This document shows, in pieces, positions 9,101 through 64,000 of a DNA stretch of 64,000 bases. The first letter of the stretch is position 1; each line of letters begins with the position of its first letter. The translations under genes and the position numbers were made by a program. The notes beneath the pieces are model-generated. The model saw only the letters and a program-made list of their open reading frames with translations. It was not told the origin of the DNA and did not search any database. Source of the DNA: Camelus ferus (Eukaryota); contig NC_045696.1 in the NCBI RefSeq assembly GCF_009834535.1, forward strand, positions 56,422,001 through 56,486,000. Reading direction: 5' to 3'.

Positions 9101-11269
9101 TGGAAAAAAGGAAGCAATTAAGAGATTTGCCTAAGATTCTTCAGGAAGAGTCAGAGGAGTAAGATCCTATCCCCGCCACCCCCGCCCTCAGAAATGTTAA
9201 TTTCCTTCACACATCTATTTCTTAACCACCTTCTAATTCAAGCTCTGTCCAGGACCAGATAACATATGCCTGGATTGCAAAATCTGATTTTTATTAACAG
9301 TTAACGTCTGAAGATGATTATAAGTTTATAAGAGAGGTAGGTAACTTTTCTGTACGTCTGAAATTTTTCATAATAACATGTCCTTCAACATGTTATAAAA
9401 AGAGGTAGGAATGTGCATCATTTATCAAGGTAAAATTCATCAGTAACTGCATATGAATGTTAGGGTTCTCAACACCTTTCTGCAAAATAAATGGTCTAAT
9501 TTTTAACTAAATGTGGAACATTCTTTTCAGCTTTCAAATCCAACTTGTGGGCCCCAAGTCAGTTCACCTTCCACCGTCTCTGTGGAAGGTCAGAGCCTCA
9601 GTGCCTTTCTCCTCTCTCCCTCAGCCCCCACTTACTCTCTGTGAGTAGAAAGAAATGCAAATTCGGGAGAAGGGGAGACTTTTCAGAGATGTTCTCTACA
9701 ACATCAACCCCATCTGGAAATGGCCCTATAATCAAACAACAAATAAGGAAAGATTAAAACCTTCAGCAGGAAACAAACTGTTAAGCGTCTACTGTCCTCC
9801 CCAGAGAACCTCTTTCCCTTCATCATTACTCTCCTACTCTTCTGAGTGCCTCCTGGGCGGGAAGTCTAGGCTGGAAGTTGCTTCATCCCACCTACCTTTG
9901 GGCCACAATTCTGCTTCACTAGACTTGGAAATTCTCTATCCCCAGGCTATCATAACTCTGCCTCTGACCAGGCTTAATGCTAGACTTTACTGGGGAACAG
10001 GGAGAAGCTAAAAGCTGGAGGCAAAAGAGAAGGGGAAATATAGGGAGCACTCCAGAGACACTGGCAGCCCTGAAGTGGAATTAGGCTGGCAAAATAGGGA
10101 CCAGAGAGCCACCGTTCCCCTCCCAAAGGATTCTTAACTCAAGCAAAGCCTGCCAAGGCATTTTCTTCTCCAGACTCAAACTACCTTAACAATACATACA
10201 AATCACTTCCTCAGCCATTTGTCTCCACACCCTTTTGCTCCAACTGCAGCAAAGGAAGAAGCTGCTGTTTTGCAAGCCTGGCTGCTACTCAGCCTGCAGG
10301 GAGGCCTTCTATGCTGCATTTAGCCGTTGGTGGAGAAAAATCAGTTTTCCTTTGCAGGCCTTGCTGCCTCATACAATTGCATCAACAATTTTTCCAGCTT
10401 TTAATCCCCATCTCAAAATCTTTCACTTTTACGTGGAGATGCCATAATTTAATGTTACCCTCCATATCCTGGTTCAAAGGACTACACCAGAAAAGACATT
10501 TCATTATAGGCTAGGACATAATTTGCCTATTATTCATGCAGGCATGTACCTAAGAAACCAACAAAGGGAAGAGTAAGAGCATGCCAAGACTTCTCGCCCC
10601 ACAGATTTCTATTCTAAAATGTTAACAACAAAACTCGATTAAAAAAAAACCTCAAGGTTCGGATTCTGCAGTGTCGCATATATACCCAGACACACACTAT
10701 TCAGACGCCAAGTTCAAACAAGTGGCCTCAAGTTTCCGGATAGAGCCAAGTAGGAGACGAGTGCTCGCCAGGGTACAAGGATGCTGCAGCTCCCGGGAGA
10801 CTCTCCTTGGCCCAGAACAAGGCAATTCGACAGACCGCGGTGCAATAAAACTCTCGTCAGGACTTCACAATCTCCGTGAGGAAGTCCACCCTATCTACCG
10901 CCCTGCACCCCTGGGTGAACGCGCCCCTGCCAGGCAGATGGGACCAGCCTGGCGAGGAGGCTCTCTCCCTGCAGTTCCGTCTGAACAGTCTGTCGCTCAT
11001 TCAAGCAAACACAACAGCCGCAGCCCCTCTTCCCAACAAACACCAATGCTCTCCTCCCTCTCCTCAGGAAGCTGCCACGGGCATCCCTGCTCAGTGACCT
11101 CGGGCTCGCTTCCAGTTTCGAAGGTAGTTTCTTTACCGTTTCCGAAGAAGCAGCCCAGATTCTGAAGAGGAGACAAAGTGCTCCCATTCCTTTCCACTTT
11201 GTACCTTAGTGTTTGATGTTTTGTAGACATATCGTGTCCACAGAGAGGTCCCCACAAAATCCCGAATTT

Positions 11270-11780
11270 GGGACCCTCAAGGGCGCGCTGCTCACCTCAC
11301 CAGGTCCGGAACCGCCGAGGAGCGCCAACCCCGCGGTGCCCGGGTCTCTCGCGGGTGCGCGGGGCCGGAAGGGACGGGGAGGGGCGGCGGCAGCACAGCG
11401 GAGCGCCGCGCCCATCGCCGCGCGGGGAGCAGAGCGCGGAGGCGGCGGGACGGCGGCGCCGGGCTCTGCGGTCTGCGCGGGGCGCGCGGTGCCTGCGGGG
11501 CTGCCGCCGGCGGGCCCTGGCGGGGCCGCGCGTCCAGCCCCTCCCTTGGCACCGCCCCGCACGCGGCGCCAGACCGAGCGCTCGGCCGGGAGCGCCCGCA
11601 GGCTAGGACGGCTCGGAGCCCCAGGAACCCTGCGCGCCGCGCCCTCCTGCCCGCTCCCGCGTCCGGTCCCCTGGGGCAGCCCGGCCTCCGGCCGCTGGGC
11701 TCCCAGACCCCCTCCGTGGGCGCCTTCCTTCAGCCTGGGCTTGCGGCTGCCGGAGGACCTGGCCCCGGGGCCGTGGAGCC
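11270..11780 (-). promoter_or_regulatory. GPR156: CpG island; probable promoter and non-coding first exon of a minus-strand gene, by synteny GPR156
   Basis: A dense CpG island is seen directly, with minus-strand donor motifs CTG|GTGAG and GAG|GTGAGC at 11291-11300. The gene name rests only on recalled mammalian order GPR156-LRRC58-FSTL1 (all same strand). No GPR156 coding sequence was recognised in the window. Confidence 0.6.
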
Positions 11781-12729
11781 TCAAGCTTGGGTCCCAAATA
11801 TCCATTTTTATTTCTAAGATGGAGTTACCAATTCATATTCTTATTTTATCCTCTGTAGGTTTTCCAAATGCTTTACGTTGAGTTTGTATTCACTTTATTA
11901 TCAGATGAGAACGTTGCTTTTCCCAGGATTGTTAAAAGGAAACCCAAACAAGATGTTTACCCATGAAAAATATGCATGAGCTTTGTGTTTAAGACATCCT
12001 TAAAAAGTCACAGGGTGAGAGAGATGGAGATGGTCTTGGAGAGACTTTCCATATTTTCATTTACTTTAAAACCTCAGACGTGTTGTGCTCGTTGGGAAGC
12101 CCCACATTTTCTCCACTGCGTGGAGGAAACCCTTGGCTGGCGAGGAGGGAAGGGAGGGAAGCTGGGTAGTGACATTCTTAGATGTCTTATGCACTATGCT
12201 ACCCAAGAGGTTTCTTTTCACAGAAAGGGTACTAATGAAGGGGGACATTAGAGGAAGAAAGGATAGCCAAGGGTTTCCTCAAGGCAGTGAGCAAAAAGCT
12301 GGATTTCCCGAGTGCAGGAATTATGCCTGAGATTCTACCCAGGTCTCTTCCAGATCTCTCGTTCTTTCTGTACAGCCTGACCTGTGCATTTGGAACAGAC
12401 AGAAAGTGAGGGAGACAGATTTGATCCTCTTTCTTGGGAGTTGCTTTAGTTAAGAAGGCACGTGGGTTTAACGTCTCCTCAGGGCAGCTGAGTCCAGAGA
12501 CCAGAAACAGCTCCTCAGTTCTGTGATTGTAGATTGAGGATTTGTCCTTCTTAACTTTATAGGGCTTTTGTTTCATCTCAGAATTTCTCCTTACTCTTAG
12601 CCCATTATTCTCAACAGTCCTCCTATATTCTGCAAGATACTGGAATCTTTCTCCCGACATAGTTCCTACCTTCAATCCCAATGTTCTTTTTCCAGTTGGA
12701 GTATCCCCAAGTCCTCACTTGCCATGCAC

Positions 12730-20834: not shown

Positions 20835-21390
20835 TTTCTTTTTTTCTTTTTTAAAAAACAAATTTATTTATTGACACAACATACAATTCACCCATTTAAA
20901 CTTTACAATTCAATAGCTTTTAGTATATTCACAGATATGTGCAACCATCATGATGGTCAATTTTAAAGTAATTTTATTACCTCAAAAAACCAAAAAAACC
21001 CTTGTTGATGAGAATGAAATGTAGAGTTACTATATGATCGAGTAATTCCAATTGTGTATATACCCAAACGAATTGAAAGCAGGGACTCGAACAGATATTT
21101 GCGTACTTGTGTTCACAGCAGCATTATTCACATGAGTCAAAAGGTAGAAGCAAACTAAATGTTCATCAATAGATGAATGGATAAACAAAATACTGTATAT
21201 ACATATAATAGAATTTTATTCAGCCTTAAAAAAGCATAAACGTCTGACACATGCTACAATAAAGATGAACCTTGAAAATGTTATGCCAAATGTAATAAAC
21301 CAGTCACAAAATGACAAATATTGTATAAATTTCATTTGTATGCAGGATCTAGAATAGTCAAATTCATTAAGACAGAAGTAGAATGATGAT
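20835..21390. mobile_element. L1MB-like 3' end in two oppositely oriented pieces
   Basis: 20835-21003 is a T-rich tail plus the extreme L1 3' end on the minus strand. ~21020-21390 is the adjoining upstream L1 segment on the plus strand (gaattgaaagcagggactcgaacagata...). Confidence 0.8.
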
Positions 21391-39756: not shown

Positions 39757-42540
39757 CTGGAGAGAAGAAGGAATGGGTACAAAGTAATTACAAAGCAAAG
39801 AGCCACAGATTTCTTTTCAACCCTTCCTCCAGCATTCTGAAGAAATGTCTTTCAAGAATCTTTTGAGAATCTTAAGCAGAAGTAGTAGTTGCTTCCATAG
39901 CTGTTTATAGAAACACTGGAAGATCTTAAGAATAGCAATTTGACTGCAAAGAGAAAGCAAGGAGATTGATCTTACAGGGAGCAAGCGTTAAAAGGACACT
40001 GTTGACTTAGCTGGTTTTCTCTGGGTGACTTGGTGAACAGTGGCTGATGGAGATTACAGGATGCCTAAAGTGCCCTTTCTCCATCCCTTGGTTCACCCTT
40101 GGTTCTATCCTACAGTCAAGAAACAAACAAACAAAAAGCAAAACTCCTTCAATAATGATCATAAAGAATTAGTTGTCATACCCAAAAGTTGCAGAAAGGA
40201 GATGACTTTTGATACCCCTGATCTTATATACTGAGAAGGAAAAAGTAAAAGTAACAAAATGCCAACTTACATTTCCACAGGCTCTAAATCTACAGCTTCA
40301 AAGCTGTTTCACTAATGATCCCACTTGGCTTTTATGCAATATATATATTGCTAGGTAGACTGAAACTAGTATTCATCTCTTCTGATTCCTAATTTAATGC
40401 TCCTGAACAGTGGTCCTTCAATCAAGTAAAAATACAGCTAGAGATGAGAGGAAAGCAGAGGTTGCTGTGTTGTGGGCTTCAAGCTGCTCCTACTGCTAGA
40501 TACGGCACATTTCTAACCCACGAAGGCTGTCACAGCAGTGGGGTCCCATCACCTCTCTGGAGAGGAATCTCAACCTCTTCACTCTACCTAAGGTGCCTCT
40601 GGCACAAGCTACTCTGTGTATATCAGATAAGGGACCAAAATAAAAAGATGTGATCCAAGTAAAGGAGAAACAATGATTCCTATTTATTTTTTTCCTGTTA
40701 CTTCTCCATTAACTGTCTAATTTTCTGATCCTGTAGTAAGCTAGTATAACTCATAGTTTAAAAAGGAAAATTCATGGTGTATTATTTTGAGCAATTCAGG
40801 AAAGTAGACAAATTCAATAACACTAGTTAATCAATACTGACAATCCCTGAAAATGTGTTAGTTTCCTGAAAACGGAAGTAATAAATGAAACATTATAGAG
40901 TTACCATGAGCTAAAATAGTACAATACTATCTTGTCATTTGTAACATAGACTATACAAAGACAAAATATCTCACAAAACATAAAATTACTGTTGTTTAAC
41001 TTTGAGTTCAATAACTAAGGAGTCTGAGGGGAAAATGGCAATGGTTTATTTCAGATATCTCAAATTTTAAGCTCATAATTTTAAGTATTTTTGTTCCTAA
41101 GATAAATAACGTATCAGTATACGAAAGAAGTCATTAAGAAACCATTAAAGAGAGAAAACAGAATTTTTGTAGAGGTCCATTTCTAGAAAAGATAGGTTCA
41201 AAGCAGAGATTAGATATGGACTACTTGAAGGCCTGGTGTGAGTGTTGTCTCACCACTATTAATGCCAACTTCAGAAAGGACAATCACAGAGAAAATCTTA
41301 CGCACGTCTTATGTGGCACAGCACAGCAGCCTCTACTTCTAAGAGTAAGTGGCCAGAAATGGCCCAGAATAGTGTCATTTTTTCTTTTTTAAATCACCAG
41401 TGTCTTTTTTATCTTTTAATACTCTTTGAGAAACTTAAATCGCCTCTTTTATAGCAGTTTTCAAGGCATGATGGGACATACAGGGAAAACCTCAGCTGGC
41501 TCTGTTCATTATTATGCAGCATTTCCTCAGCACCTACATTTATCCTACAACAGTAAAAACCTTTCTGTACTCTTGTTACTTGGATTTTTCAAAAAGTAGT
41601 CTTTTATGAGGGAGCCAAAATAAAGTGACCTACTATCATTTACCAACCCACCACCACACACCCTGGCACTTCAGGCCCTTCGTAAAGTGGCCTCAACGTA
41701 TCTTTTACTTGTCTCTCATTACTTCCCTCACTGTACATTTGAGCCAAATTATTACTCTTCCAACATTCTGTCCCACACTGTTTTGCCTCCAATTTTACTC
41801 TCCATCTGAAAAGTTTCCTATCCTCAATCTTACCCTATCAAAATTCAACTCACATGTCAAGAATTCTCTCATCTTTTCCAGATCTAATTAAATGTACTTT
41901 CTCCCTCCTCTGATTTCCAATAGGGTTTTGGATTCCTACTTTATTCTGTATCACATTATATCACTTAATTTTCTCCAAATGCTCTAAACTCAAGAAATTT
42001 TGAACCATGAATTTAAAAGAATATAAATTCCAGGGCACATTCTGAAACTGGCACACATTCAGCCTGTTCTCATACATCCTAAATCGTACTCTCCAAAGGT
42101 ACCTGATACTCAGAGTGGTGAGTCTAAGAAAATGTCCTTAAACTAAATATGAAAGGTGGCCAAGCATTTTAGAGACTTTTTTTAAGGGAATCAGGACTGT
42201 TTATGCTTCTTCTTGTGTTTTCTCTCACGTTACCAACTTAACCTATCCTATGACAATTACAAGACAGGAGGAGACTTTCTGGTATTTCTGGGTATTTTCC
42301 TTGTGTATGAATCCTAAAGTACCATGAAAGGAAGGAATGAAGGAAGGTAGGGAAGGAGGGAGGAAGAAAGGAAGGAACCAAGAGAGGGTAAAATGTCTTA
42401 CTTTCTGATAAAAGGGTAAAAAGGATAAGGGAAACAGAAGCAAACTGCCTTTCTCTGAAAGATAGCTAATTAAAACGACACAGATCATCAATTTAAAAGT
42501 AGCTAAATGAATAGGAAACAAAGACACTGAATTAACTTAC

Positions 42541-42818
42541 CTCCGCACTTTGGGTTTGGGCAATTGCTGGCTGAACTCAAGTACCTAAGAAGATTCCCAG
42601 GAAGATCATAGGGAGTGTAGGAAATATTTCGAATTTTAATGGTCCGTGCAGCTAACTCCAGGAGAGTTGGAGGGTCATAGGTTAAATCTCTAACGAAACG
42701 AACAACCAATGGATTTCCTCGTAAACTCAATTCTTCCAAATGAATAAGGTTGAGGATCTCTCGAGGCAGGTATGTCAGCAAGTTATTGTGAAGACTGAGG
42801 GAACGAAGTGAATGTAAC
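42541..42818 (-). CDS. LRRC58: LRRC58 coding exon 3 (last LRRs, BC-box-like motif, start of Cys-rich region)
   Basis: Acceptor ttctag|G, donor GGAG|gtaagt, 278 nt. Translates LHSLRSLSLHNNLL...PPTLLELAARTIK...NCPNPKCG, inside ORF 42503..42862. Confidence 0.96.
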
Positions 42819-43471
42819 CTAGAATGAACAGAGTACAAAGTCAACAGCAGAAAGCAAGACAACTGCTGAGCAAGTTAAGTCAAAAACTCAATTTCCCCAT
42901 AAGAACAGCAATTAAGATTAAGGTCAATGGAAACAAAATTAAAAAGTGCCGAAACTAAATCAGAGCCCAGATTTGTATTGCCATGAAGGACTTTTGTCCA
43001 TGGAATCCTAGAGAGCTTAAAATATTTAGAGAATATTCTGATGTGCTGATATATACGCTAGATTGAAAGGGTTTTTTTTCCTACACGTGTTTTATCATTC
43101 AGATACCTAAAAAAGGAAAGATTTCAAATGTAACAGGAATTAAAATCCTTCACATTATCCTATCTAGGATAGGAATGCTTTGCATCAAATATAAAATCAT
43201 AAAACCTGGGGAAATCTATGCCAAAGTAATACTCTATTTTTGATTATAGAAAAAAGGCTCAATCCACATTTTTAGAGTATCAGAGCCTTTAAAAGTAAAA
43301 TTTTAAATAAGCAACCCAGTCCATAGCGAACCTCAGAATTTTAATTCTCACGTATCATTTACTTTGAGAACACTTAATTCGTTTTCACATATAAATCATG
43401 TGGATGAATGCAGGACAATAATTCCTAAGTATGGATCTCTGTGTATACATATACTGCCTGAAAATACTCAC

Positions 43472-53039: not shown

Positions 53040-54090
53040 GAAGACAGGTCCGTCACAATCGTGACAACCGAAGGCGCCAAGAGCAGGCGCGGGGCCCCGG
53101 GCCTCCCTGCTCTCAGGCAGGCACCAGCTCACCTCCTCAAGTTCTCGATCTCGGCCGGGATGCTCTGAAGTTGGTTGCCGCCCAAGCTGAGGGTCTGCAG
53201 CGCGCGCAGCTCCAGCAGAGAGGCGGGCACCTCCTGGAAGCAGTTTCCGCTGAGGTTGAGCACCTGGAGGCTGCGGCAGAGCGGCGACTGGGCCAGGCCC
53301 TTGGGCAGCGCGCCGGGCCCGCCAAGCCGGTTGTTCTTGGCCAGCAGCGTACGCAGGCCGCGCAGCGCCAGCAGCTCCGGCCCCAGCGCGGTCAGCGCGT
53401 TGCCGCTCACGTCCAACAGCTGGAGATGCGGGAAGCCGTTGCCCAGAGCCCGCGGCAGCGACACCAGACGGTTGTGCGGCAGCAGCAGCCGCAGCAGAGC
53501 CTCCCGCGCGCCGCGCCGCTCCTCGCCCCGCGCCTCCAGCTCCGACTCCAGGGTCTCGGGGGACACGCTAAACCGGGACAGATTCAGTTCCGCCTCTCCG
53601 GCCGCGATCACCGCGGCTCCGGCCTCCTCCATCCCAGCCGCCTCACCGGGCCGCGCGCGACCCACAGGCCGGGAGCTCCGCGGCGCCCCGGAACCTGAAC
53701 CGAGGGCTGCGTCGGAAGTGGCGCCGGCGGGCGCTAACCTCGCGCGCCCCCGACGAGTCACGGGACGCGACGCGAGGCGGCCGGGTGCGCGCGCCGCTCC
53801 GGGACCGGGACCGGGCTCCGCCTCCCGCGGCGCGCAGCGCAGAGAGGGTGCGCCGGGCGGGGTCGGAGACCCGGCGGTCCCAGGGATTACTCTGCGCGGC
53901 CTGCTGAGTTTGGGCGGCCGCGCTTTATAGTCCTTGCAGTCTGGTGACCTGTCTCCGGAGTCAAGGACCGCCCCAGTAAACAGCCGAGGATAGTTTGGTT
54001 TTTTGGCTTTGAGGGTTCGCGCGTCATGATGCACCGCCCACTTGGTTCCCGGTTTAGGAGTGGGGCCCCTAGTCTGCGGGGTCGGCGAGA
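53040..54090. promoter_or_regulatory. CpG island / promoter of LRRC58
   Basis: Very GC- and CpG-rich block covering exon 1 and upstream sequence. Contains an ETS/GABP-type CGGAAGTG at 53713-53720, GCGCGC tracts and GC-box-like motifs. Confidence 0.9.
53133..53632 (-). CDS. LRRC58: LRRC58 coding exon 1 (N-terminus and first LRRs)
   Basis: ATG at 53632-53630 in a good Kozak context (GGGATGG). Encodes LxxLxLxxNxL repeats (LQLLDVSGNAL, LRTLLAKNNRL, LQVLNLSGNCF, LQTLSLGGNQL). Ends TTGAGGAG|gtgagc, phase 2. Confidence 0.96.
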
Positions 54091-57000
54091 ACACAGGAAT
54101 TCAGTGGTGGTTCAGCTCCATGACAGCAAGCCCCAGGAATTTTTAAGTCCCAGGATTAACCAAGACGACTTTGAAGTGCGAAGACAGCTGAACTAGAAAT
54201 CAGAACTCTTGATCTTACCTCGGGTCAGCCTTGTTTCCTCCGACAAGGGATTTGATTTCTGTATCTCTATCCATAAAACATCCTTGCCTTGCTTGCCCTA
54301 CAGGATTAAAAAAAAAAAAAGCATTTTAAAAGGAATGTCTGTCAAATAAGGACGTTTCGCCATTTTAGCTGTAGAAGTACTTCTGCGGGTTTTTTTAGTT
54401 TAAGTTGTAGTGGCTAGAAATGAATTTGGGAGCCACGGAAGATTTTTTTGTTAATTTGAAATAGCTCAATTTTATTGATCGGTTTAAGAACACAGAAAGC
54501 ATTGAGATTTTACTTCAAGTTGAAACTACAACTTAACTGGGAAAATCCTGACTGGCTTTAATTTAGGACTTCCAATTAACATATTTTTTCCCTTGCCTTA
54601 AACTCAGTCTTTCCTGAAATTACTTTTTACAATTTTGAAAATCATGAATAGAAATGAGGAAAATATTTAGCGTATTTTTACAAAGCTAATGCATAAAATA
54701 TTCAAAGATTGTTCATAACCAGTGCCATTAAATTGCTTTCTTCCTAAAAAGGGAAATAAAGTAACTTTTTTCTTGCCAGTCGTTGGTGTGGGAAACTTTA
54801 TGCTTCTTACCCCCTGCCAAACTTTAACTTAATTTCTTTTTGAGTTATAGTTATGGGAGGATACACATTGTGAGTTTAAACTAGAGATGGAATGTTTTTA
54901 AAACCCATGGAGTGTTCTGAATTTGAAACTTGTTTTGAAAGGGTCCTTTAAAAAATTATATCTTGCTTTGGATCAAGATTACATTCTGGCAGAAACCTAA
55001 TATGTGAAAATTGCAAATATTTAAAATAGTACAGTCTTATGCTTTTAAAAATGTGTGTGTGTTTGTGATAAAAATAAACTGACAGGAATGTAATGTGAAA
55101 TGAGAAAAAATAATTCAAATATGATTCAGAAATAGAGTTAGGTTCACAAATCAGTGAAGTTAGAGGGGAAAAGATGGAATTAGCCTCAATAGTAGAGAAT
55201 GAAGCTACCTGGTAGACAGTTTTGAAGATAGACTGAAAGTAATGTGAGAATCCCCTTTCGGCTCATTTATAACCCTCTCTACCTCAGCTACCATGGATGC
55301 ATCTCTTTGCTGAAATGAGATGGGTCTAAATAAAGCAGCATCCCTCAACACTGCAGTGGGCCTTGAAACTACCCAGTCTGCTTAGAGAGTTCTGAAAACC
55401 CTCTGGGAACTGAAGGAGCTTTGGTGGCTAGTGAACCTCACAGTGATGGGGTCTGTCTTGGGGCCAGCTGAAGGAGAGGGCAGAGAGGCCGTGGGGACAC
55501 CGGAGAGCGTGAAGGGGAAAGGAGACAACGTGATGCGACGTCTAGGGAAAGGAAGATGGATTACAGGGAACTGGGGAAATACATGGTGTACTTGCCCACT
55601 TACAGGAACTTCACCGTTAAGTCAGTTTTAGGTCAAATTGACTGTTTCAAGATAGGTCTCCTGACTAGAATGTTACTGAAAAAAGAACAGAGACCAAGTG
55701 AAGGGCACTTCCTCCTTCAGCCATCCTGTCCATGTTTCCTGAGGGGGGGAACTGAATGTATTTACTACAGCCCTCCGTGAGATACAGCAAGCACTAAGTA
55801 AGTAGTGAGTACAGAAAAAAACAAAGCTGAGTGGAGAATCCTTTCATAAACTAGCTGGGAGGCAACATACTAAAGTAGAGAAAAAGTGGGCTTTGGCTTT
55901 TATCAGAGACAGGTTTCAAATCCCACCTCTGCAAATGAGATTTCTCTTACTTAATCTTGATTTTGTGACTTACTCTCTTTAAGCCTTGATCTCATTTGAT
56001 TATGATGAATATTGTCTGTTTCATAGGGTCAGTTTGAAGTAAATAATCCATAAGTAGTGGCAATTATTATTATTAGCAGTAATAGTAGTAATAGTTATTG
56101 TTATAACTATTACTGTCTCCCGCTTTATAGATCATCATCAGCGTAAAGAGAAACAAAGTTGAGAACAACCTTTACTCATGATGACACAATTTCTTACATA
56201 AACTGTGCTTTTCTGTTCTGGGCCAGACCATGTTTTCCAGATTATAATTTGAAAGGTTTGTCTGAACTTTCCTTGCCCTTGGTCTTGACACTCGAGATTT
56301 ATGCTTATTGTCCTCTCTATTTCCAGATTGTATCAGGACCTTGTACCTCCTAAACTGAACTCTTACCTCCATTCCAGCTACCTTGGATTCAGATAACTTT
56401 TCTGAACTACTGCTTTCATTATTTCAAGCTATCTCTCTCTCTTCCTCCCCTCCTAACCCTGAGTCTCTTCATTCATTATCAGATGAAGGTCAATGGCTTA
56501 GCCTAGCATGCAGGGTTTTGGATTATTTCCATTGCTGAGTCCCTCTCAGATTGATTTATCCAATTTGGCCTGAGGTGGTTTAAAGTTCTGCCATCTTCTT
56601 ACACAAACTGTAGTCCAAATCTCAAACAACAGTTACTCTCTGTTCAAGGCAGCATTGAAGGCAGAGGGAGCTGTAGTCTTTCAAGCCACCATGAGAAGGA
56701 ATTAGCCTTTATGTTTATAGGAGCGTAGAGTGAGTCTGCAGCCAGTTTTGTAATTTAAGGTCTACGATTTTGTTATTAGCAGTTCCTTCCTCTGCCTCAG
56801 TGTATTCTTTGCCATGGAATTGATAGATTTATATTAATTGGTAGACTAAGCTTTCCTGAATACCTTTCCCCTGCACCCAGTCTCTTTTGAAGTATGGGCT
56901 CTGTTTATTTTGCAGATTCAAATAATGACACGACATTTTTGGACATGGGTGTTTTTTACTAAGCATTTGTAAGAGCTGTGAAAGCATCCCCATCACTCCT

Positions 57001-57289
57001 TCCATTGAATTCACTTCATTTAGGGATTTTCTCACACCTGGTTAGGTGCTTTCCTTGGTGATTGTCTTGGGAATTTAAGTGGCTTTTAATCTTTAAAATT
57101 TTTTCCACTTGTTCAGCCTATGTTCCATAATTGGGTTGTTTTACTTTTTTATAGATAGCTAGTCATAACAACGACTATAACAAGCTAAAATACTGTTAGC
57201 CCCCAATTTATTCATTCAGAAATACTTACTGAGCACCTCTTGTGTGGAAGAAACTGAACTATGCGTTGGAGATGTATAGAGATAACCAA

Positions 57290-57500
57290 AACCAATGGCT
57301 AACATTTATTGTTTTCTCAGTGCCAGACACTATCCTAAGGGCTTTGTAGTTATTATTTTATTTAATCCTCATCCCCATTCTATAAGGTTATCCTCGTTTT
57401 ACAGACAAGAAAACTGAAGTATGAGAAAATTAAGTAACTTGCCACTTTACAGTTATGAAGGGGCTGGATATGAACATAACAGAATATGGCTTCAAAGTTT
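57290..57500 (-). mobile_element. MIR SINE remnant
   Basis: ggctaacatttattg...gtgccagacactatcctaaggg...tttaatcctca...tttacagacaagaaaactgaag. Confidence 0.75.
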
Positions 57501-57538
57501 ATGATTATGTCGAAATGCAATCACTGCCTTCAAGAGTA

Positions 57539-57629
57539 TATTTTTAATGACAAAAAGTGCTCACAAAACAGTTTAAGCAGCCGGACCCTAAACTGTATAC
57601 AAATTTAGTTATCTTAAAAAGTACACATA
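57539..57629 (+). repeat. Copy of a ~92-bp direct duplication (partner 60953-61044)
   Basis: Three substitutions and one 1-bp indel versus 60953-61044 by manual alignment. Confidence 0.93.
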
Positions 57630-57639
57630 GAGGTTTATA

Positions 57640-58536
57640 GTATAATAAAAATAACAGAGATTAAACATGAACCCATAAACCCCCAAATAATCCAATATAA
57701 AAGTGGGCAAAAGGTCTGATAGACTTTTCTCCAAAGAAGATCTAGGAATAACCAATAAGTAAACGAAAAGATGCTCAGTATCATTAGCAAATGCAAATCA
57801 AAACCACGAAGAGATACTGCTCACACCCACTAGGATAGCTAAAAGATAGACAATGACTGCTCAGGAGGATATGGAGAAATTGGAATCCTCATATACTGCT
57901 GGTGGGGATGTAAAATGGTGCAGCCACTTTGGAAAATAGTCTTGGTAGTTCCTCAAAAGGTTAAAAAATAGAATTACCATGTGACCCAGCAATTCCACTC
58001 CTAGGTATATATCCAAGAGAACTGAAAAGACATATCCAACAAAAATTTGTGCACAGATGTTCATAGCCACATTATTATCATAGCCAGAAAGTGGAAACAA
58101 CCCGAATTTCTATAAGCTGATGAATTGATAAATAAAATGTGTTTATCCATAAATGGAATATTATTTAGCAATAAAAATGAAGTACTGATATATGTTACAA
58201 TATGGGTCATTCTTGAAAACATGAAAACACATAAAAGGAAGAAACCAGTTACATACATACCACAGGACATATGAGTCCATTTACATGAACCATCCAAAAC
58301 AGGCAAATCTGTGGAAATAAAAAATAGATTAATGGTTTCCAGGGGCTGGAGAGAAGGGGGAATGGGGAATGACTGCTAATGGGCAGAATTTCTTTTGGGG
58401 GTGATGAAAACATTTTTAAGCTGATTGTGATGATGTTTGTACAACTCTGTGAATATACTAAAACCATTGAACTATACACTTTAACTAGATGAAGTGTGTG
58501 ATATGTGAACTTTATCTCAATAAAGCTGTTATAAAC
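57640..58536 (+). mobile_element. L1MB-like 3' fragment (ORF2 C-terminus and 3' UTR)
   Basis: aaatgcaaatcaaaaccac...ggtggggatgtaaaatggtgcagccactttggaaaa...gacccagcaattccactcctaggtatat...ctcaataaagctgtt. Confidence 0.9.
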
Positions 58537-59499
58537 CAAGTAATTAAAATATTAACTGTCATATAGATTCATAACCAAATACTATGAAAATTCAGAAAGA
58601 AGAGACCGTTTCAGGCTGCTGCAATTAGGAAAGCCTTCATTGGGTAGTGGGGTTTTAGTAGAGATGGGATGAGGCATGTGAAATTGGAGGAAAAGAAATG
58701 AAGAAGGTTATTTCTTGAGAAAGAATGTCAACAACAAGAAGGAAAGCATATGCCTGGGTAATGATGAAGGGTCTAGTTTGGCTGGTGTGCTTGGAGTGGT
58801 GGTTACAATAGCCAAGTGTTGGCGCACTTTAGAGAATAATAGCAGAAAATATTTTAAATTGTAACTTTGCCCCCTAAATGTAAGGTGTACTGTTATGGTA
58901 TCGTATAAAGGAGCGGTAAAGCTTGAAATGGTAAGTTGGCCTAGATCATGGAGGGAGAGGTATGAATACTAGGTCAGGAGAACATCTCTGATTCTTTCCT
59001 TACTGAAAGCTCAAAATCCCGTTTCCTTATTAGCTCATCTAGACATTGATGAAAAGACTGCCAGGCTTAGGGGAGCCTGTGGAATGTGGCACCTGTAGAA
59101 AAGCCTTATATCTGAGTACAAAGTATCCTTCCCAGTTTCTTCGGATTGTGGTAATATCACGATGTTTCTCTTCTGCATCAAGCCCTATGGCAGGAATTAC
59201 AGAAGTGATATGAATTGACTGCAATTATTTCATTCCATTATATTCCATTCCACAGTTATTTTATTGAGCAGCTGTGTAAAAGATCTATGTTGGATGTTGC
59301 AGGAGCTCAACAGTTCATGTTTGTAGATGTAGCTCTAAGTTTATTTTGAAACTTCGTAGGTGTTTCCTTCTTCCATCCTTCCTGAGAGGTTCTAGAGATG
59401 CAAAGGGAGGAACTACTTCACTCACAGTCAAATGGGGCCAGGGATCCAGAGTATAGCTGCCTCTGGCAGACCCCCAGCAGAAAGCCTCCTGTTCTTGTC

Positions 59500-59623
59500 T
59501 TTTTTTTTCTTTTTTTCAATTGAAGTACAGTAAGTTATAATGTGTCAATTTCTGGTGTACAGCACAATGTCCCAGTCATACATATACATACCTATATTCG
59601 TTTTCATATACTTTTTCATTAAA
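59500..59623 (-). mobile_element. Short younger L1 3' end, same type as 1354-1534
   Basis: T-rich tail followed by caattgaagtacag...tgtgtcaatttctggtgtacagcacaatg...cagtcatac. Confidence 0.8.
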
Positions 59624-60536
59624 ACCCTCTGTAGTGTTGTCATCTATAGTCCACCTGGGCTGCGTGTGGAGTGTAAGGACTAGGGCAACCTGGTTCAGCC
59701 CCAGACCCAGTCATCCATTTGCAGTGGTGGTGGGTGAGGGAAAGGCCACCACTGAACTTGAGTTTAAAAGTTAATCAGAAAGACTTTGAACAGGAGACAC
59801 AAACCATACTTATCCCTAAGAGGAAGAGAATAGAGAATAAATCTCATTTGCTCTCCTTCCTGTACCCTCACTCTCTGTACCACATTATATGTGTAAGATC
59901 TGTCTGTACATTTCTTTATTTTTCCAGTTATGAAGTATTTATCATAATGTAAATGGAAAAGGTCACTACAGAAAATTCAGAGAAATGTAATAAAAACAAC
60001 CAAAATCACACATCATAATAATCACTGCTAACATTTTGGTGTATTTCCTTCCTTTTCTATGTACATATAATTTCCCCCCACAAAGTTGGAATCATATATA
60101 TGTGTAAACATACATTAAGTTTTGTATTTTGATTTTTTTTGCTAATTCTCCAATATTGGACATGATGGTGTTCTTTTAGTTCCACTTTTCAGCCACAATG
60201 CCTTGCAAACACTTTTTTTAGCCAACAAATACAGCTATTAGAAACATGAACACTCGCAGAGCTCTTTGCTGAGCTTTTGCTGCAACAGTGTGGTAATCAC
60301 AGCAGCACCAAGCCCTCCCCCTGGGCACTGCCACACAGCCATCCCTTTGAAGACATGCTGACTCCGCCTCACCACCTTGCTTCTCACCTGGCTGATCAGA
60401 AGGACCAGCAGTGACACAGGTAAGCTCTTACAATGAAGAGACTATTTATTTGGGAGAAATTGTTGGCCATGATTGTGAACCAGAGAGCCAAATGTGACTG
60501 AAGTGTTTGGGTATATCCTCCAACTGCATGTGGTCC

Positions 60537-60699
60537 CTTTACATGTATGCCTCTACATCGAGCTAGTTCATAGTCTCCTCGTAGTTTTCCTGTAGATGAG
60601 AGGTGAAAAGGGTGTAAGGCCTGGAGACAATACCTGGGTGCACTGCTGGAATTTTCTGTTTTGGTGGAGTTCATACTCATCTTTCGTAGTTTATGAATT
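60537..60699 (+). repeat. Left copy of a 163-bp inverted duplication (partner 63762-63924)
   Basis: Ungapped alignment to the reverse complement of 63762-63924 with 11 mismatches by manual count. Confidence 0.95.
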
Positions 60700-61934
60700 T
60701 TATTTTTCTGTTTTTCCTTCTTTTTGTCTTTTTCCTGTTATACAGTGAAAATTTGTTAAAATGTTACACTAGATTAAATTTAATTTTGTTAATGCAATAA
60801 ACACGTATTGGGGCTGTACAACACGTGGAACACAATGACGGACATATGAAAGACAAGAGGACGTAGGCAGACCCTTAGGGAATTTACAGTCTAGTAGGGG
60901 TGATAAGCTATGCAAACAAATAACTATCAAAGTGCAGACCAGGTTATAGGGTTATTTTTAATGACAAAGAAGTGCTCACAAAACTGTTTAAGCAGCTGGA
61001 CCCTAAACTGTATACAAATTTAGTTACCTTAAAAAGTACACATACAGGAGACTGAGAAACAATACTCCAAAATGGAAATCGTGGTTGTCTGGGTGATGGA
61101 CGTAAAAGTAATGATAATATACTTTATTCTTTTCTATTTTTCTAATATTTTAAAACTGAATATGTGTTACTATTAGAATCATAAAAAATAAGCTCTATTA
61201 AATGTGTGAGAGTATTATATAAAAATACAAAATACAATAGAAGTGCAGAGGAGAAAATTTTATCTCTGACTGGGGTTGGAGGAAATGGGAAGGCTTTAGG
61301 ATTTATGTCTTTTATGATGATGAAAAGCTTTTAATCTTGGAAATAGATAATGAAATTTCATTGAGTTGAAAAGGCATTTTATATTCCTACAACTTTTTTC
61401 CTCTATGACATTTGACTACAGTCTCTCTCTGTTAACTATCTATAGTTCTAATAGCTGTTATCTGGCATACTGCCTTTTATATTTTATATTATTTTAGATA
61501 TCTTAAAAATTTTTTTGCTACATATACCATAGAGATATTTTCTAAGTTAGCAGTTGCTGGCAATCACTAGTCATATTCCTAATCAGAGTATATAGTCTTG
61601 GCAATGAATCTTTCTATTTGTCCCACTAACCCCAGAAATGCTTTATTTGGACATTTGCTGGCAAGGGCTGCTCGTTTATCCTCTTGTTCTTTTGAAGAAA
61701 TCTGTGTCTGTTAATATTCAACCCACAGAGCACATATTCTCCAGGGTCCAATAGGCCTCTAGGAAAAAGACTTTTTGTAATATTCCACAAGCCATCTGCT
61801 TCATCAGCAATGAGCTTCCTGTTCTTTTGGTGGACATCCTGGTTGACCCGACTTCCCACGGTGTGTGATGAAGTTGTAGGGGTTGGTCAGGACAGAATTT
61901 AGGTGACATGCACAGGCTTCAGCTAACCTGAAAG

Positions 61935-62120
61935 GTGAGAGTCTTGGTTCTGTGTGACCTTGCTGAATTATTTACCCTCTCTATGTCTTAGTTTCCTTAC
62001 TTAGAAAATGGATATAATGAAAAAGAAAAAAATGGAATTAATAATACTAACCATTTCCTAGGCTTATTTTGACGATTAAAATTAGCATTTGTTAACATTT
62101 GATATATAGCTGCTATTATT
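61935..62120 (+). mobile_element. MIR SINE remnant
   Basis: ctgtgtgaccttgctgaattatttaccctctctatgtcttagtttccttacttagaaaatgg matches the MIR core. Confidence 0.7.
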
Positions 62121-63682
62121 CTGATGTATCACAGACCTGGTAGGTTGTGGGGTTATTTTTGCTCCTTAATAGATTATAAGAAGAGGCAGAGTTTTGGTTG
62201 ATAAGTGAGTAGTGGGGGGGGGGGGCAGATGAGGGTGGTGTGACGGGGATTGTGCCAGGAAAAGAGGGTATGAACAGCACTATATAACTTCAGGATGGTA
62301 CTGGTGGAACTCGAGGTATGAGAGAGTAGTGAGAGATGAGACCAGAGAGAGGGACTGAATCCAGACTGTCAGTAGGGTTGCCTTTACCTGCTGTAGCTGT
62401 GCATTTATATCAGAGCTTCTTGAAGGGGCTGAGTGTTCCCTAAGTCCTTTCTCCCACCCTGTCCAGAGCCGTCCCAGGCTTGTTAATACCCTTCCCATTA
62501 AAGTGTGTCCCTGGCTGGGCAGATATGTTTAGTACTGTCTCTTGGTTATGTTCTCCTTTTGGGAAACATTGCTCCATAACTTCTCAGATACACCTGTAAT
62601 CTACTGGTTATGCCTCCCCTACTGCTGACTTTCCCCCAGCAACATCCAGAAAGGCCAGCAACAATTGCTTGGGAAGTTGTCATTAACCCCCTCAAACATC
62701 ATCTTAAGGCCCACTCTGATCCAAATGAATTCAAATGTGACTCACCTATAGAGATCTATTTGCATTTTATAGTAATAGAGTTCCAGATTCATACAGCAAA
62801 TCAAACAAATCTGCATAGGATCAGCTTGGGTGAACTTGACTCAGTGGACAATCCCACATGGAATGTCGAAGTGCTGGAAGCCTGTCTGCTAAGGGTGCAT
62901 CTGGTGGGCATGGAGCCTGGAGGTGGGGCCTGGGGGGCCTTCCTTGGATCCAGCAGGGTTGGGGCTGGGTTATGCTGGCTCACACTCTTTTTTAGCTGAA
63001 GCGTATTTCCTGCCTTTCTCTTTTTTCCTTCCAGATTGTCTTTCTTTTTGGTGATTATCAACATACATCTACTTGTCCATGATATAGGTGAGTCACTTTT
63101 CAAAAAATCTTTGTGGGTATTGCTGAAACAACTTTGGAGATAGGGAGGTAAATAGTGGTTTGGAGATTAGAAAAAAACAAGCACATGACTTCATCTCTCT
63201 GAACCTTACTTAGTCTTTTCATTCTTTAGATGTGAGTAACAATGCTGTATTTGTTTCACGGGAAATGGTGAAGAACAGATGGGAAAATATAACAGACCCA
63301 AATTGTAAAGCATTATTGTTTATTCTATTTCCATTTTTTTTAAATGAGAAAAGCCTCCCCATCCCCACCCCCAATCTGATTTGTCCGCTTGAGGCCATAT
63401 CTGGGTAACTACACTTATTCACATCTATAATTTGAACTCCTACCATGAAAAAAAAAACTAGACAGGCATCCGCACTTAAAGTGGTAAGTGCCAGTTTAGG
63501 GAATAGTATCACAGAATATTTGTGATCAGGTCTGCCTAAAAAATCTGGATGGGCAGTCAACACAGGGTTTGTGTAACTTTTTCTACTCAATTCTTCAAAA
63601 ACATGGAGATGAATAGTATATAGATATTGAAAATGTTAATGTCATTTAGCTAACTGAAAGTATATATGCAAAATTTTAAAAA

Positions 63683-64000
63683 TTTTTGGGAGGGAGGTAA
63701 TTAGGTTTATTTATGTATCTTTAAATTATTATTATTATTATTAATTTTTTAGTGGATTTACAATTCATAAACTACTAAAGATGAGTATCAACTCCACCAA
63801 AACAAAAAATTCCAGCAGTGCACCCAGGTATCGTCTCCAGGGCTTACACCCTTTTCACCTCTCGTCTACAGGAAAACTACGAGAAGACTACGAACGAGCT
63901 CGAGGTAGGGGCATACATGTAAAGTGGATGTACTGAGGATTGAACCCAGGACCTCGCGCATGCTAAGCATGCACTCTACCACTGAGCTATACCCTCCCCC
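63683..64000 (-). mobile_element. tRNA-derived SINE (vic-1 type, camelid), interrupted by a 163-bp insert
   Basis: Minus-strand head GGGGGAGGGTATAGCTCAGTGGTAGAGTGCATGCTTAGCATGCGCGAGGTCCTGGGTTCAATCCTCAGTAC contains Pol III A box (TAGCTCAGTGG) and B box (GGTTCAATCC). Tail ...TAAATAAACCTAATTACCTCCC. The 5' flank lies beyond the window edge. Confidence 0.88.

Follow-up and report, generated by a model that had tools for sequence, protein, structure and literature searches.

A short inverted copy of nearby DNA inside a tRNA-derived SINE of Camelus ferus

Background

How does a piece of anonymous genomic DNA come to lie, inverted, in the middle of a short interspersed element (SINE)? The question is raised by a stretch of 64,000 nt of Camelus ferus NC_045696.1 (hereafter the window, whose end lies 1 nt past the SINE head, and from whose first letter all positions are counted), in which a tRNA-derived SINE upstream of the gene LRRC58 is divided by an inverted copy of sequence found about 3 kb away. 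A previous sequence-only reading drew attention to this arrangement and proposed two origins, namely a templated insertion into a staggered break and template switching while the SINE was being integrated.

In this report, we examine the anatomy of the insert, the direction and order of the changes, and the explanations that could account for them. The event was most likely an old, one-off accident of copying or repair, of a kind already known; on balance, we favour a single out-and-back templated insertion into a SINE that was already integrated. What is new at this locus is a second local copy, whose probable donor lies close to that of the first.

Results

The inverted pair and its junctions

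Positions 63762-63924 are the ungapped reverse complement of 60537-60699, with mismatches at 11 of the 163 positions (Table 1). BLAST stretches the pair to 166 nt at 92.8% identity and 246 bits, compared with 50 bits for the best inverted self-match in 30 block-shuffles of 56000-64000. The donor and the insert are 3.06 kb apart, and no third copy of the 163-mer was detected in the window by blastn (word size 7) or nhmmer. Every coordinate and count that the sequence-only reading gave holds, as does its placing of the insert between the RNA polymerase III (Pol III) head and the tail of the SINE; a tRNA-Ala-like head and an A-rich tail lie on either side.

Table 1. Positions of the features discussed in the text
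Feature	Positions	Strand	Evidence or remark
Inserted copy, 161 bp (homology 63762-63924 including microhomology)	63762..63922	-	Self-comparison, T-run scan
T-runs in the insert	T4 at 63876, T6 at 63809, T4 at 63802	SINE sense strand	T-run scan
Donor of the inverted copy	60537..60699	+	No SINE remnant or flanking duplication at the breakpoints; no coding similarity detected
Head-side 11-mer	63923..63933	-	Consists of the 3' strand of the tRNA acceptor stem and 2 nt; its final 2 nt form the microhomology shared with the donor
Tail-side 11-mer	63751..63761	-	One substitution, at 63758; left edge abuts the + strand T-run 63745-63750
tRNA-Ala-derived SINE head	63923..63999	-	ARAGORN; Rfam RF00005, 37.3 bits
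A-rich SINE tail	63683..63750	-	A6, TAA repeats, C-rich end, A5; 3' boundary by eye
Probable donor of the second duplication	60953..61048	+	254 bp past the end of the first donor
Second local copy, direct orientation	57539..57633	+	96 columns, 4 substitutions and 1 indel, 94.8%
LRRC58 first coding exon	53132..53632	-	PDB 9t7v_B, E 2.3e-98; named LRRC58 proteins (93-95% identical) are among the top eutherian matches, which place the host within the eutherians

The insert is flanked by a direct repeat (63751-63761 and 63923-63933) that is identical at 10 of 11 positions and extends on neither side, as had been described; the chance of such an 11-mer repeat is about 2e-4, counting about 25 registers near the junctions, and the window holds only one other match to the 11-mer at 10 or more of its 11 positions. 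The 2 nt of microhomology reported earlier are indeed present, on the head side only (63923-63924 with 60537-60538); the tail-side junction has none, a 1-nt mismatch being followed there by two matches. Neither arm contains a poly(A) tract, in agreement with the first description, nor an AATAAA or ATTAAA signal.

The arms have diverged by 6.7% (95% interval 3.8-11.7%), with a longest identical run of 26 nt, and at about 7% divergence the event is probably old. At three mismatches (60570, 60597 and 60629), the SINE-borne arm has CpG where the donor arm has CpA or TpG. These sites had been counted correctly, but their polarity is within chance (3:0, p 0.25) and is not significant even when the second duplication is added (4:0, p 0.125); nor is a weak/strong base bias between the arms significant (strong in 6 of 9, p 0.51). 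The SINE-borne arm is CpG-rich, with 6 CpG, a count reached by only 3 of 375 non-island bins. Two explanations of the mismatches themselves were discarded: error-prone synthesis near the junction, for which 5 mismatches fall within 26 bp (clustering p 0.30), and ADAR editing of an RNA intermediate, for which the 2 A>G and 2 T>C changes show no strand consistency.

The host SINE

The tRNA-like part of the element (63925-63996, minus strand) resembles tRNA-Ala(AGC) according to both ARAGORN and Rfam RF00005. It contains matches to an A box (63979-63989) and a B box (63937-63945), the latter being missed by a stricter B-box pattern, and the first T5 run past the SINE tail begins at 63682. Once the insert and one 11-mer are removed, about 145 bp are left, in which the head is followed directly by the A-rich tail, with no body; by its sequence, the host element has the build of a simple tRNA-derived SINE. 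No second copy of it was found within the window.

The host element is presumably vic-1. No vic-1 consensus was found in the literature searched, including PMC8605555, PMC6726744 and PMC12849490. The vic-1 element of camels is named together with ID and DAS-I among the simple tRNA SINEs (SINEBase, PMC3531059), which the host resembles in its tRNA head, its A-rich tail, its lack of a body and its length without the insert, and from which it differs by the 161 bp that it carries.

Exact-pattern scans for the SINE head (viral, metagenome and prokaryote collections) and for the SINE tail (viral) gave 0 matches, which is uninformative for a mammalian element; the same scan of the metagenome collection with the 163-mer also gave 0, and is equally uninformative, the SINE head being absent there as well. 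Beyond the tRNA, Rfam at E<=1 returned two sub-threshold matches that were treated as chance, FAM13A-AS1_1 (E 0.4) and mir-302_2 (E 0.57). The first of these, FAM13A-AS1 conserved region 1, lies directly left of the donor (60393-60527, plus strand, 24.2 bits) and reflects either chance or a common ancient repeat.

Direction of copying and order of changes

Because the duplicated 11-mer belongs to the SINE itself, the SINE-borne arm is the inserted copy and 60537-60699 is the donor. The 11-mers also carry some information on the order of changes. In the Rfam alignment, pairs 2 and 4 of the acceptor stem are non-standard, and both 11-mers carry the base that disrupts pair 4 (at 63929 and 63757), from which it follows that this change predates the duplication. 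The sole difference between the 11-mers, at 63758, breaks a pair kept by the head-side copy and arose at or after the duplication. Correspondingly, a reconstructed empty site is called a tRNA by ARAGORN when it is given the head-side 11-mer, and is not when it is given the tail-side one. The pair-4 change is compatible with a SINE already aged when the insertion took place, and equally with a source RNA that was already so altered.

A second local duplication with an adjoining probable donor

Self-comparison of the whole window yielded four off-diagonal pairs at E<=1e-4. Besides the inverted pair, only one of them exceeds 90% identity: a direct pair (57539-57633 and 60953-61048) that the sequence-only reading overlooked, and whose probable donor adjoins that of the inverted copy. 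The two duplications are comparably diverged (4 of 95 versus 11 of 163 positions; Fisher p 0.58). Two independent donors would lie this close with a probability of about 0.013 if placed anywhere in the 64 kb, and of 0.083 if placed within 10 kb, both values being post hoc. Both high-identity duplications of the window thus seem to derive from a single 512-bp stretch (60537-61048), and they may represent a single episode or a site that was broken repeatedly.

The direction of the second copy is weakly supported, by two indications. A weak nhmmer match (E 0.13) runs across the right breakpoint of the donor. In addition, 60953-61200 resembles, by eye, the 3' end of an old L1. The bases that follow the copy resemble those that precede its donor, a pattern of circular permutation (p 0.01-0.02, post hoc) that is a hint only, and the copy may be flanked by a 6-bp duplication (57535 and 57639).

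Two side observations concern these surroundings. An old L1-like 3' fragment (about 57640-58530; identified by eye) has the second copy at its left end. Within an old L2-like fragment, also recognized by eye, positions 60800-60899 hold 4 CpG per 100 bp; with the CpG-rich arms, this may hint at GC-biased conversion, but the 7 CpG in 60500-61050 are no strong excess over the 37 in the preceding 6 kb.

Predicted transcripts and coding potential

The earlier suggestion of a chimeric Pol III RNA stands in so far as the A and B boxes match the consensus, making such an RNA possible. A run of four or more T terminates Pol III, and a transcript started at 63999 is predicted to meet three T-runs within the insert, a T4 at nt 123, a T6 at nt 190 and another T4 at nt 197; each of them is present as T4 in the donor. 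The RNA would therefore stop at about 125-195 nt and not reach the A-tail on which L1 priming depends. Most likely, then, the capture made this SINE copy useless as a source of retrotransposition, rather than founding a family. The predicted 195-nt chimeric RNA folds no better than shuffled sequences (-60.8 kcal/mol, z 0.06), and the donor DNA has no special fold (z -1.16). The double-stranded RNA likewise suggested for the inverted pair would be a strong duplex (152 of 163 Watson-Crick pairs, -270 to -278 kcal/mol as computed) if a single transcript spanned the 3.4 kb concerned.

As for proteins, 7-9 of the 11 changed codons are non-synonymous in each of the six frames when the inserted arm is compared with the donor. 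A stop-free frame of 45 codons in the SINE-borne arm (63785-63919, plus strand) has no protein similarity that we could find, and its donor counterpart has two stops. The captured sequence shows no sign of a function.

The idea that the donor might be a coding remnant was dropped for want of protein similarity. Pfam assigned 0 families to the donor open reading frame, one sub-threshold match only to the six frames of 60201-60742, none to any of 12 frames of 54101-64000, and one weak unrelated match to five short frames. A PDB sequence search of the donor region gave nothing below E 0.85 in seven of seven queries, and a homologue search, a scan of 1.84 billion proteins and the ESM Atlas were all blank. 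Also dropped were a by-eye likeness of the donor to a decayed immunoglobulin-type exon, which has no protein similarity behind it, and a possible butyrophilin-like pseudogene beside human LRRC58, whose gene name did not occur among the papers listed by a literature search.

Consensus-type exon candidates number 10 in the window, six of them on the minus strand, compared with about 0.9 per strand in shuffled sequence; two of the 10 overlap LRRC58 coding sequence. One candidate of 202 nt (60589-60388, minus strand) has its 3' splice site inside the donor arm.

Discussion

A proposed templated insertion into an integrated SINE

In the account that we favour, a germline break or a stalled fork would have occurred at the boundary between head and A-tail of a SINE already in place. 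The 3' end of the SINE-sense strand would have paired with the opposite strand of the DNA 3.2 kb away, over 2 nt (5 of 6 if a bulge is allowed), and have been extended over 161 nt on that donor template. The new strand would then have rejoined the SINE 11 nt upstream of its exit, or have been joined to the other end of a break staggered by 11 nt. Either route would leave an inverted copy between 11-bp duplications, after which both copies would have drifted neutrally.

Several features favour this account. The donor is local and has no third copy in the window; the insert is bounded by a duplication internal to the SINE, and lacks both poly(A) and signal; the stem-breaking base is common to both 11-mers; and the divergence looks neutral, no coding constraint being visible in any frame. 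One junction has microhomology and the other has none, as is reported for locally inverted insertions at mouse germline breaks, where microhomology is found at one junction only (bioRxiv 2020.06.23.168138). Finally, templates copied during L1 integration are reported to lie typically within 15 bp of the site (bioRxiv 2024.08.27.596794), compared with 3 kb here. Templated insertions are also described at 2.2% of germline breakpoints (PMC3638133), and template switching and theta-type joining have been proposed at human meiotic breaks (PMC7615360).

Other observations weigh against it. The order, SINE first and insert later, is an inference, and the stem-breaking base common to both 11-mers could come from the source SINE RNA. 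The microhomology amounts to only 2 nt, and at least 2 nt would be expected by chance at 17% of junctions. The end of the 11-mer coincides with the start of the T-arm in the tRNA fold, a natural pause point for a reverse transcriptase, and 11 bp is also within the reported size range of L1 target duplications (PMC5322556).

Explanations that involve retrotransposition

The last two points lead to the strongest competitor, jumps of the reverse transcriptase between templates during SINE integration, in which case the SINE and the insert would be of the same age. The L1 reverse transcriptase would copy the tail, then 11 nt from the tRNA part, jump to the donor (plus-strand DNA or a plus-strand transcript), copy 161 nt, and re-anneal over 2 nt to the SINE RNA at the head/tail boundary to complete the head. 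Jumping models exist (PMC2912911), L1 insertions that concatenate two templates or include templated nearby genomic DNA occur experimentally (PMC11702581), template-switch chimeras have been catalogued (PMC13174262), and the exit point does coincide with the start of the T-arm. We nevertheless hold this route to be possible but distinctly less probable than insertion into an integrated SINE: it requires two jumps, off and back onto the same short RNA; the distance to the donor exceeds the 15 bp within which reported templates typically lie (bioRxiv 2024.08.27.596794); and the second local duplication was made with no SINE head at all, an instance of local copying that modestly favours a mechanism acting at the DNA level. 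The two origins first proposed were thus the right candidates; our data do not separate them, and we give more weight to insertion after integration.

A different use of the L1 machinery would be target-primed insertion, into an existing SINE, of an internally primed RNA fragment in the manner of a tailless retropseudogene, the RNA being a nascent minus-strand transcript that crossed the donor. The 11-bp duplication and the 2-nt primer complementarity lie within the reported ranges of 8-30 nt and 2-18 nt (PMC5322556), the donor holds the consensus-type minus-strand 3' splice site of the 60589-60388 candidate, and the plus-strand sequence at the insertion site is TTTT/AG, which at SINE tail junctions is a sub-optimal site for L1 nicking (PMC2836564). 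The target, however, misses TT/WAAAAWW, only TT/A fitting; a first nick at TTTT/AG would, as we read the model of PMC2836564, duplicate the A-tail side and not the head side; TTTT/AA or TTTT/AG sites are common, at 4.3 per kb of window; and the insert straddles the candidate splice site and is therefore not a spliced product. We regard this explanation as unlikely.

Still less credit is due to the idea that the element belongs to, or founded, a composite SINE subfamily, or that a young dispersed repeat, the 163-mer, inserted on two independent occasions. In its reconstructed ancestral form, the 163-mer is rich in CpG, so that the donor may be younger than its surroundings. Set against this, all three T-runs were already T4 in the donor and would have been candidate Pol III terminators ahead of the A-tail from the outset, the insert is no more than a fragment with SINE-internal sequence on both sides, and the donor has neither element-like ends nor a further copy in the window. 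An assembly artefact is scarcely credible, as a mis-join would copy identical sequence and here the arms differ at 11 scattered positions (clustering p 0.30) and the 11-mers at one.

Comparison with known systems

Among known processes, fork stalling with template switching (FoSTeS), break-induced replication mediated by microhomology (MMBIR) and polymerase-theta end joining (PMC3638133, PMC7615360) are alike in leaving a short nearby copy at a junction, with little microhomology, a small re-copied segment and no poly(A). As described there, such insertions differ in accompanying the breakpoints of larger variants, whereas the present one stands alone in the window and has a SINE as its acceptor. 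It has the marks of a local templated insertion, with an intact template nearby and no poly(A), signal or trace of splicing.

Templated sequence insertion polymorphisms (TSIPs; PMC5110952) offer a close parallel in size, the insert being within the experimental range of 73-414 bp, and in their intact donor. Neither of the two classes described fits fully. The L1-mediated class 1 is defined by a duplication of at least 5 bp, for which there are 11 bp here, and by a poly(A) with an upstream AATAAA, which is absent; the break patches of class 2 have no tail, as here, but no duplication either. The present donor is moreover 3 kb away rather than distant, and the copy is about 7% diverged.

Insertions at meiotic SPO11 breaks (bioRxiv 2020.06.23.168138, PMC13532658) are reported to measure 15-349 bp when ectopic and 16-709 bp when inverted, ranges that include the 161 and about 96 bp found here, and to have 0-2 nt of microhomology or microhomology at one junction only, compared with 2 and 0 nt. 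Several fragments can derive from one narrow source region, as is suggested here; those insertions were recovered inside deletions, whereas ours lies between 11-bp duplications. Tailless retropseudogenes and L1/SINE chimeras (PMC5322556, PMC13174262, PMC11702581) share the size of the duplication, the lack of a tail and the short junction complementarity. Here, in contrast to the accounts given in these sources, the target consensus TT/WAAAAWW is missing, the source is anonymous local DNA and not a known RNA, and the extra piece is internal to the SINE rather than appended at its 5' end. A composite SINE, lastly, would need a transcript that reaches the A-tail with no internal Pol III terminator, and the T-run scan places candidate terminators within the insert. 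In the titles and abstracts of mostly non-subscription literature, we found no published instance of a simple SINE that contains an inverted copy of local DNA.

Significance

Read as we think most likely, the event is of little importance: it is one more old templated insertion, the anatomy of which is unusually clean, as the donor, both junctions and the duplication can all be read. It illustrates how a simple SINE may gain a body module from local DNA, and also why most such captures die, as internal T-runs sever the transcript from the tail.

A more ambitious interpretation, which we consider improbable, is that 60537-61048 is a fossil hotspot of germline breaks from which two or more fragments were set free. 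One, of 161 bp, would have been captured in inverted orientation in the SINE, 3.2 kb downstream, and another, of about 96-105 bp, in direct orientation 3.4 kb upstream, possibly circularly permuted by way of a small DNA circle. In its boldest form, the captured piece would yield a Pol III RNA of 125-195 nt complementary to the candidate minus-strand splice acceptor at 60589. If the hotspot did exist, the locus would be a fixed and datable genomic record of the re-insertion of double-cut fragments or circles seen in mouse spermatocytes. If it were the common origin of both copies, such pairs could be counted genome-wide as fossils of mis-repaired germline breaks, and the evolutionary contribution of double-cut fragment capture would become testable.

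Gene context and minor observations

The start codon of LRRC58 is at 53632 on the minus strand; the donor lies 6.9 kb upstream of it, and the distance to the SINE, likewise upstream, is about 10 kb. A further coding exon of the gene lies at 42503-42874 (minus strand), and a GC-rich island at about 11200-11900 is a second CpG island, which probably marks where the next gene, by synteny presumably GPR156, has its first exon.

Two older inverted repeat pairs, 1395-1471 with 59541-59618 (86%) and 20871-20988 with 58393-58509 (73%), resemble ordinary dispersed L1-type fragments.

Between the two arms lies a small consensus-type exon candidate (63035-63087, plus strand), and a splice-donor-like site is found at 60420 on the same strand. 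This candidate exon may be part of a transcript that runs divergently from the promoter of LRRC58, where a pseudogene may lie in human. A 21-nt inverted repeat (62730-62750 and 63083-63103), 90% complementary with its halves 332 nt apart, overlaps a further splice-donor-like site at 63088; the repeat is probably due to chance.

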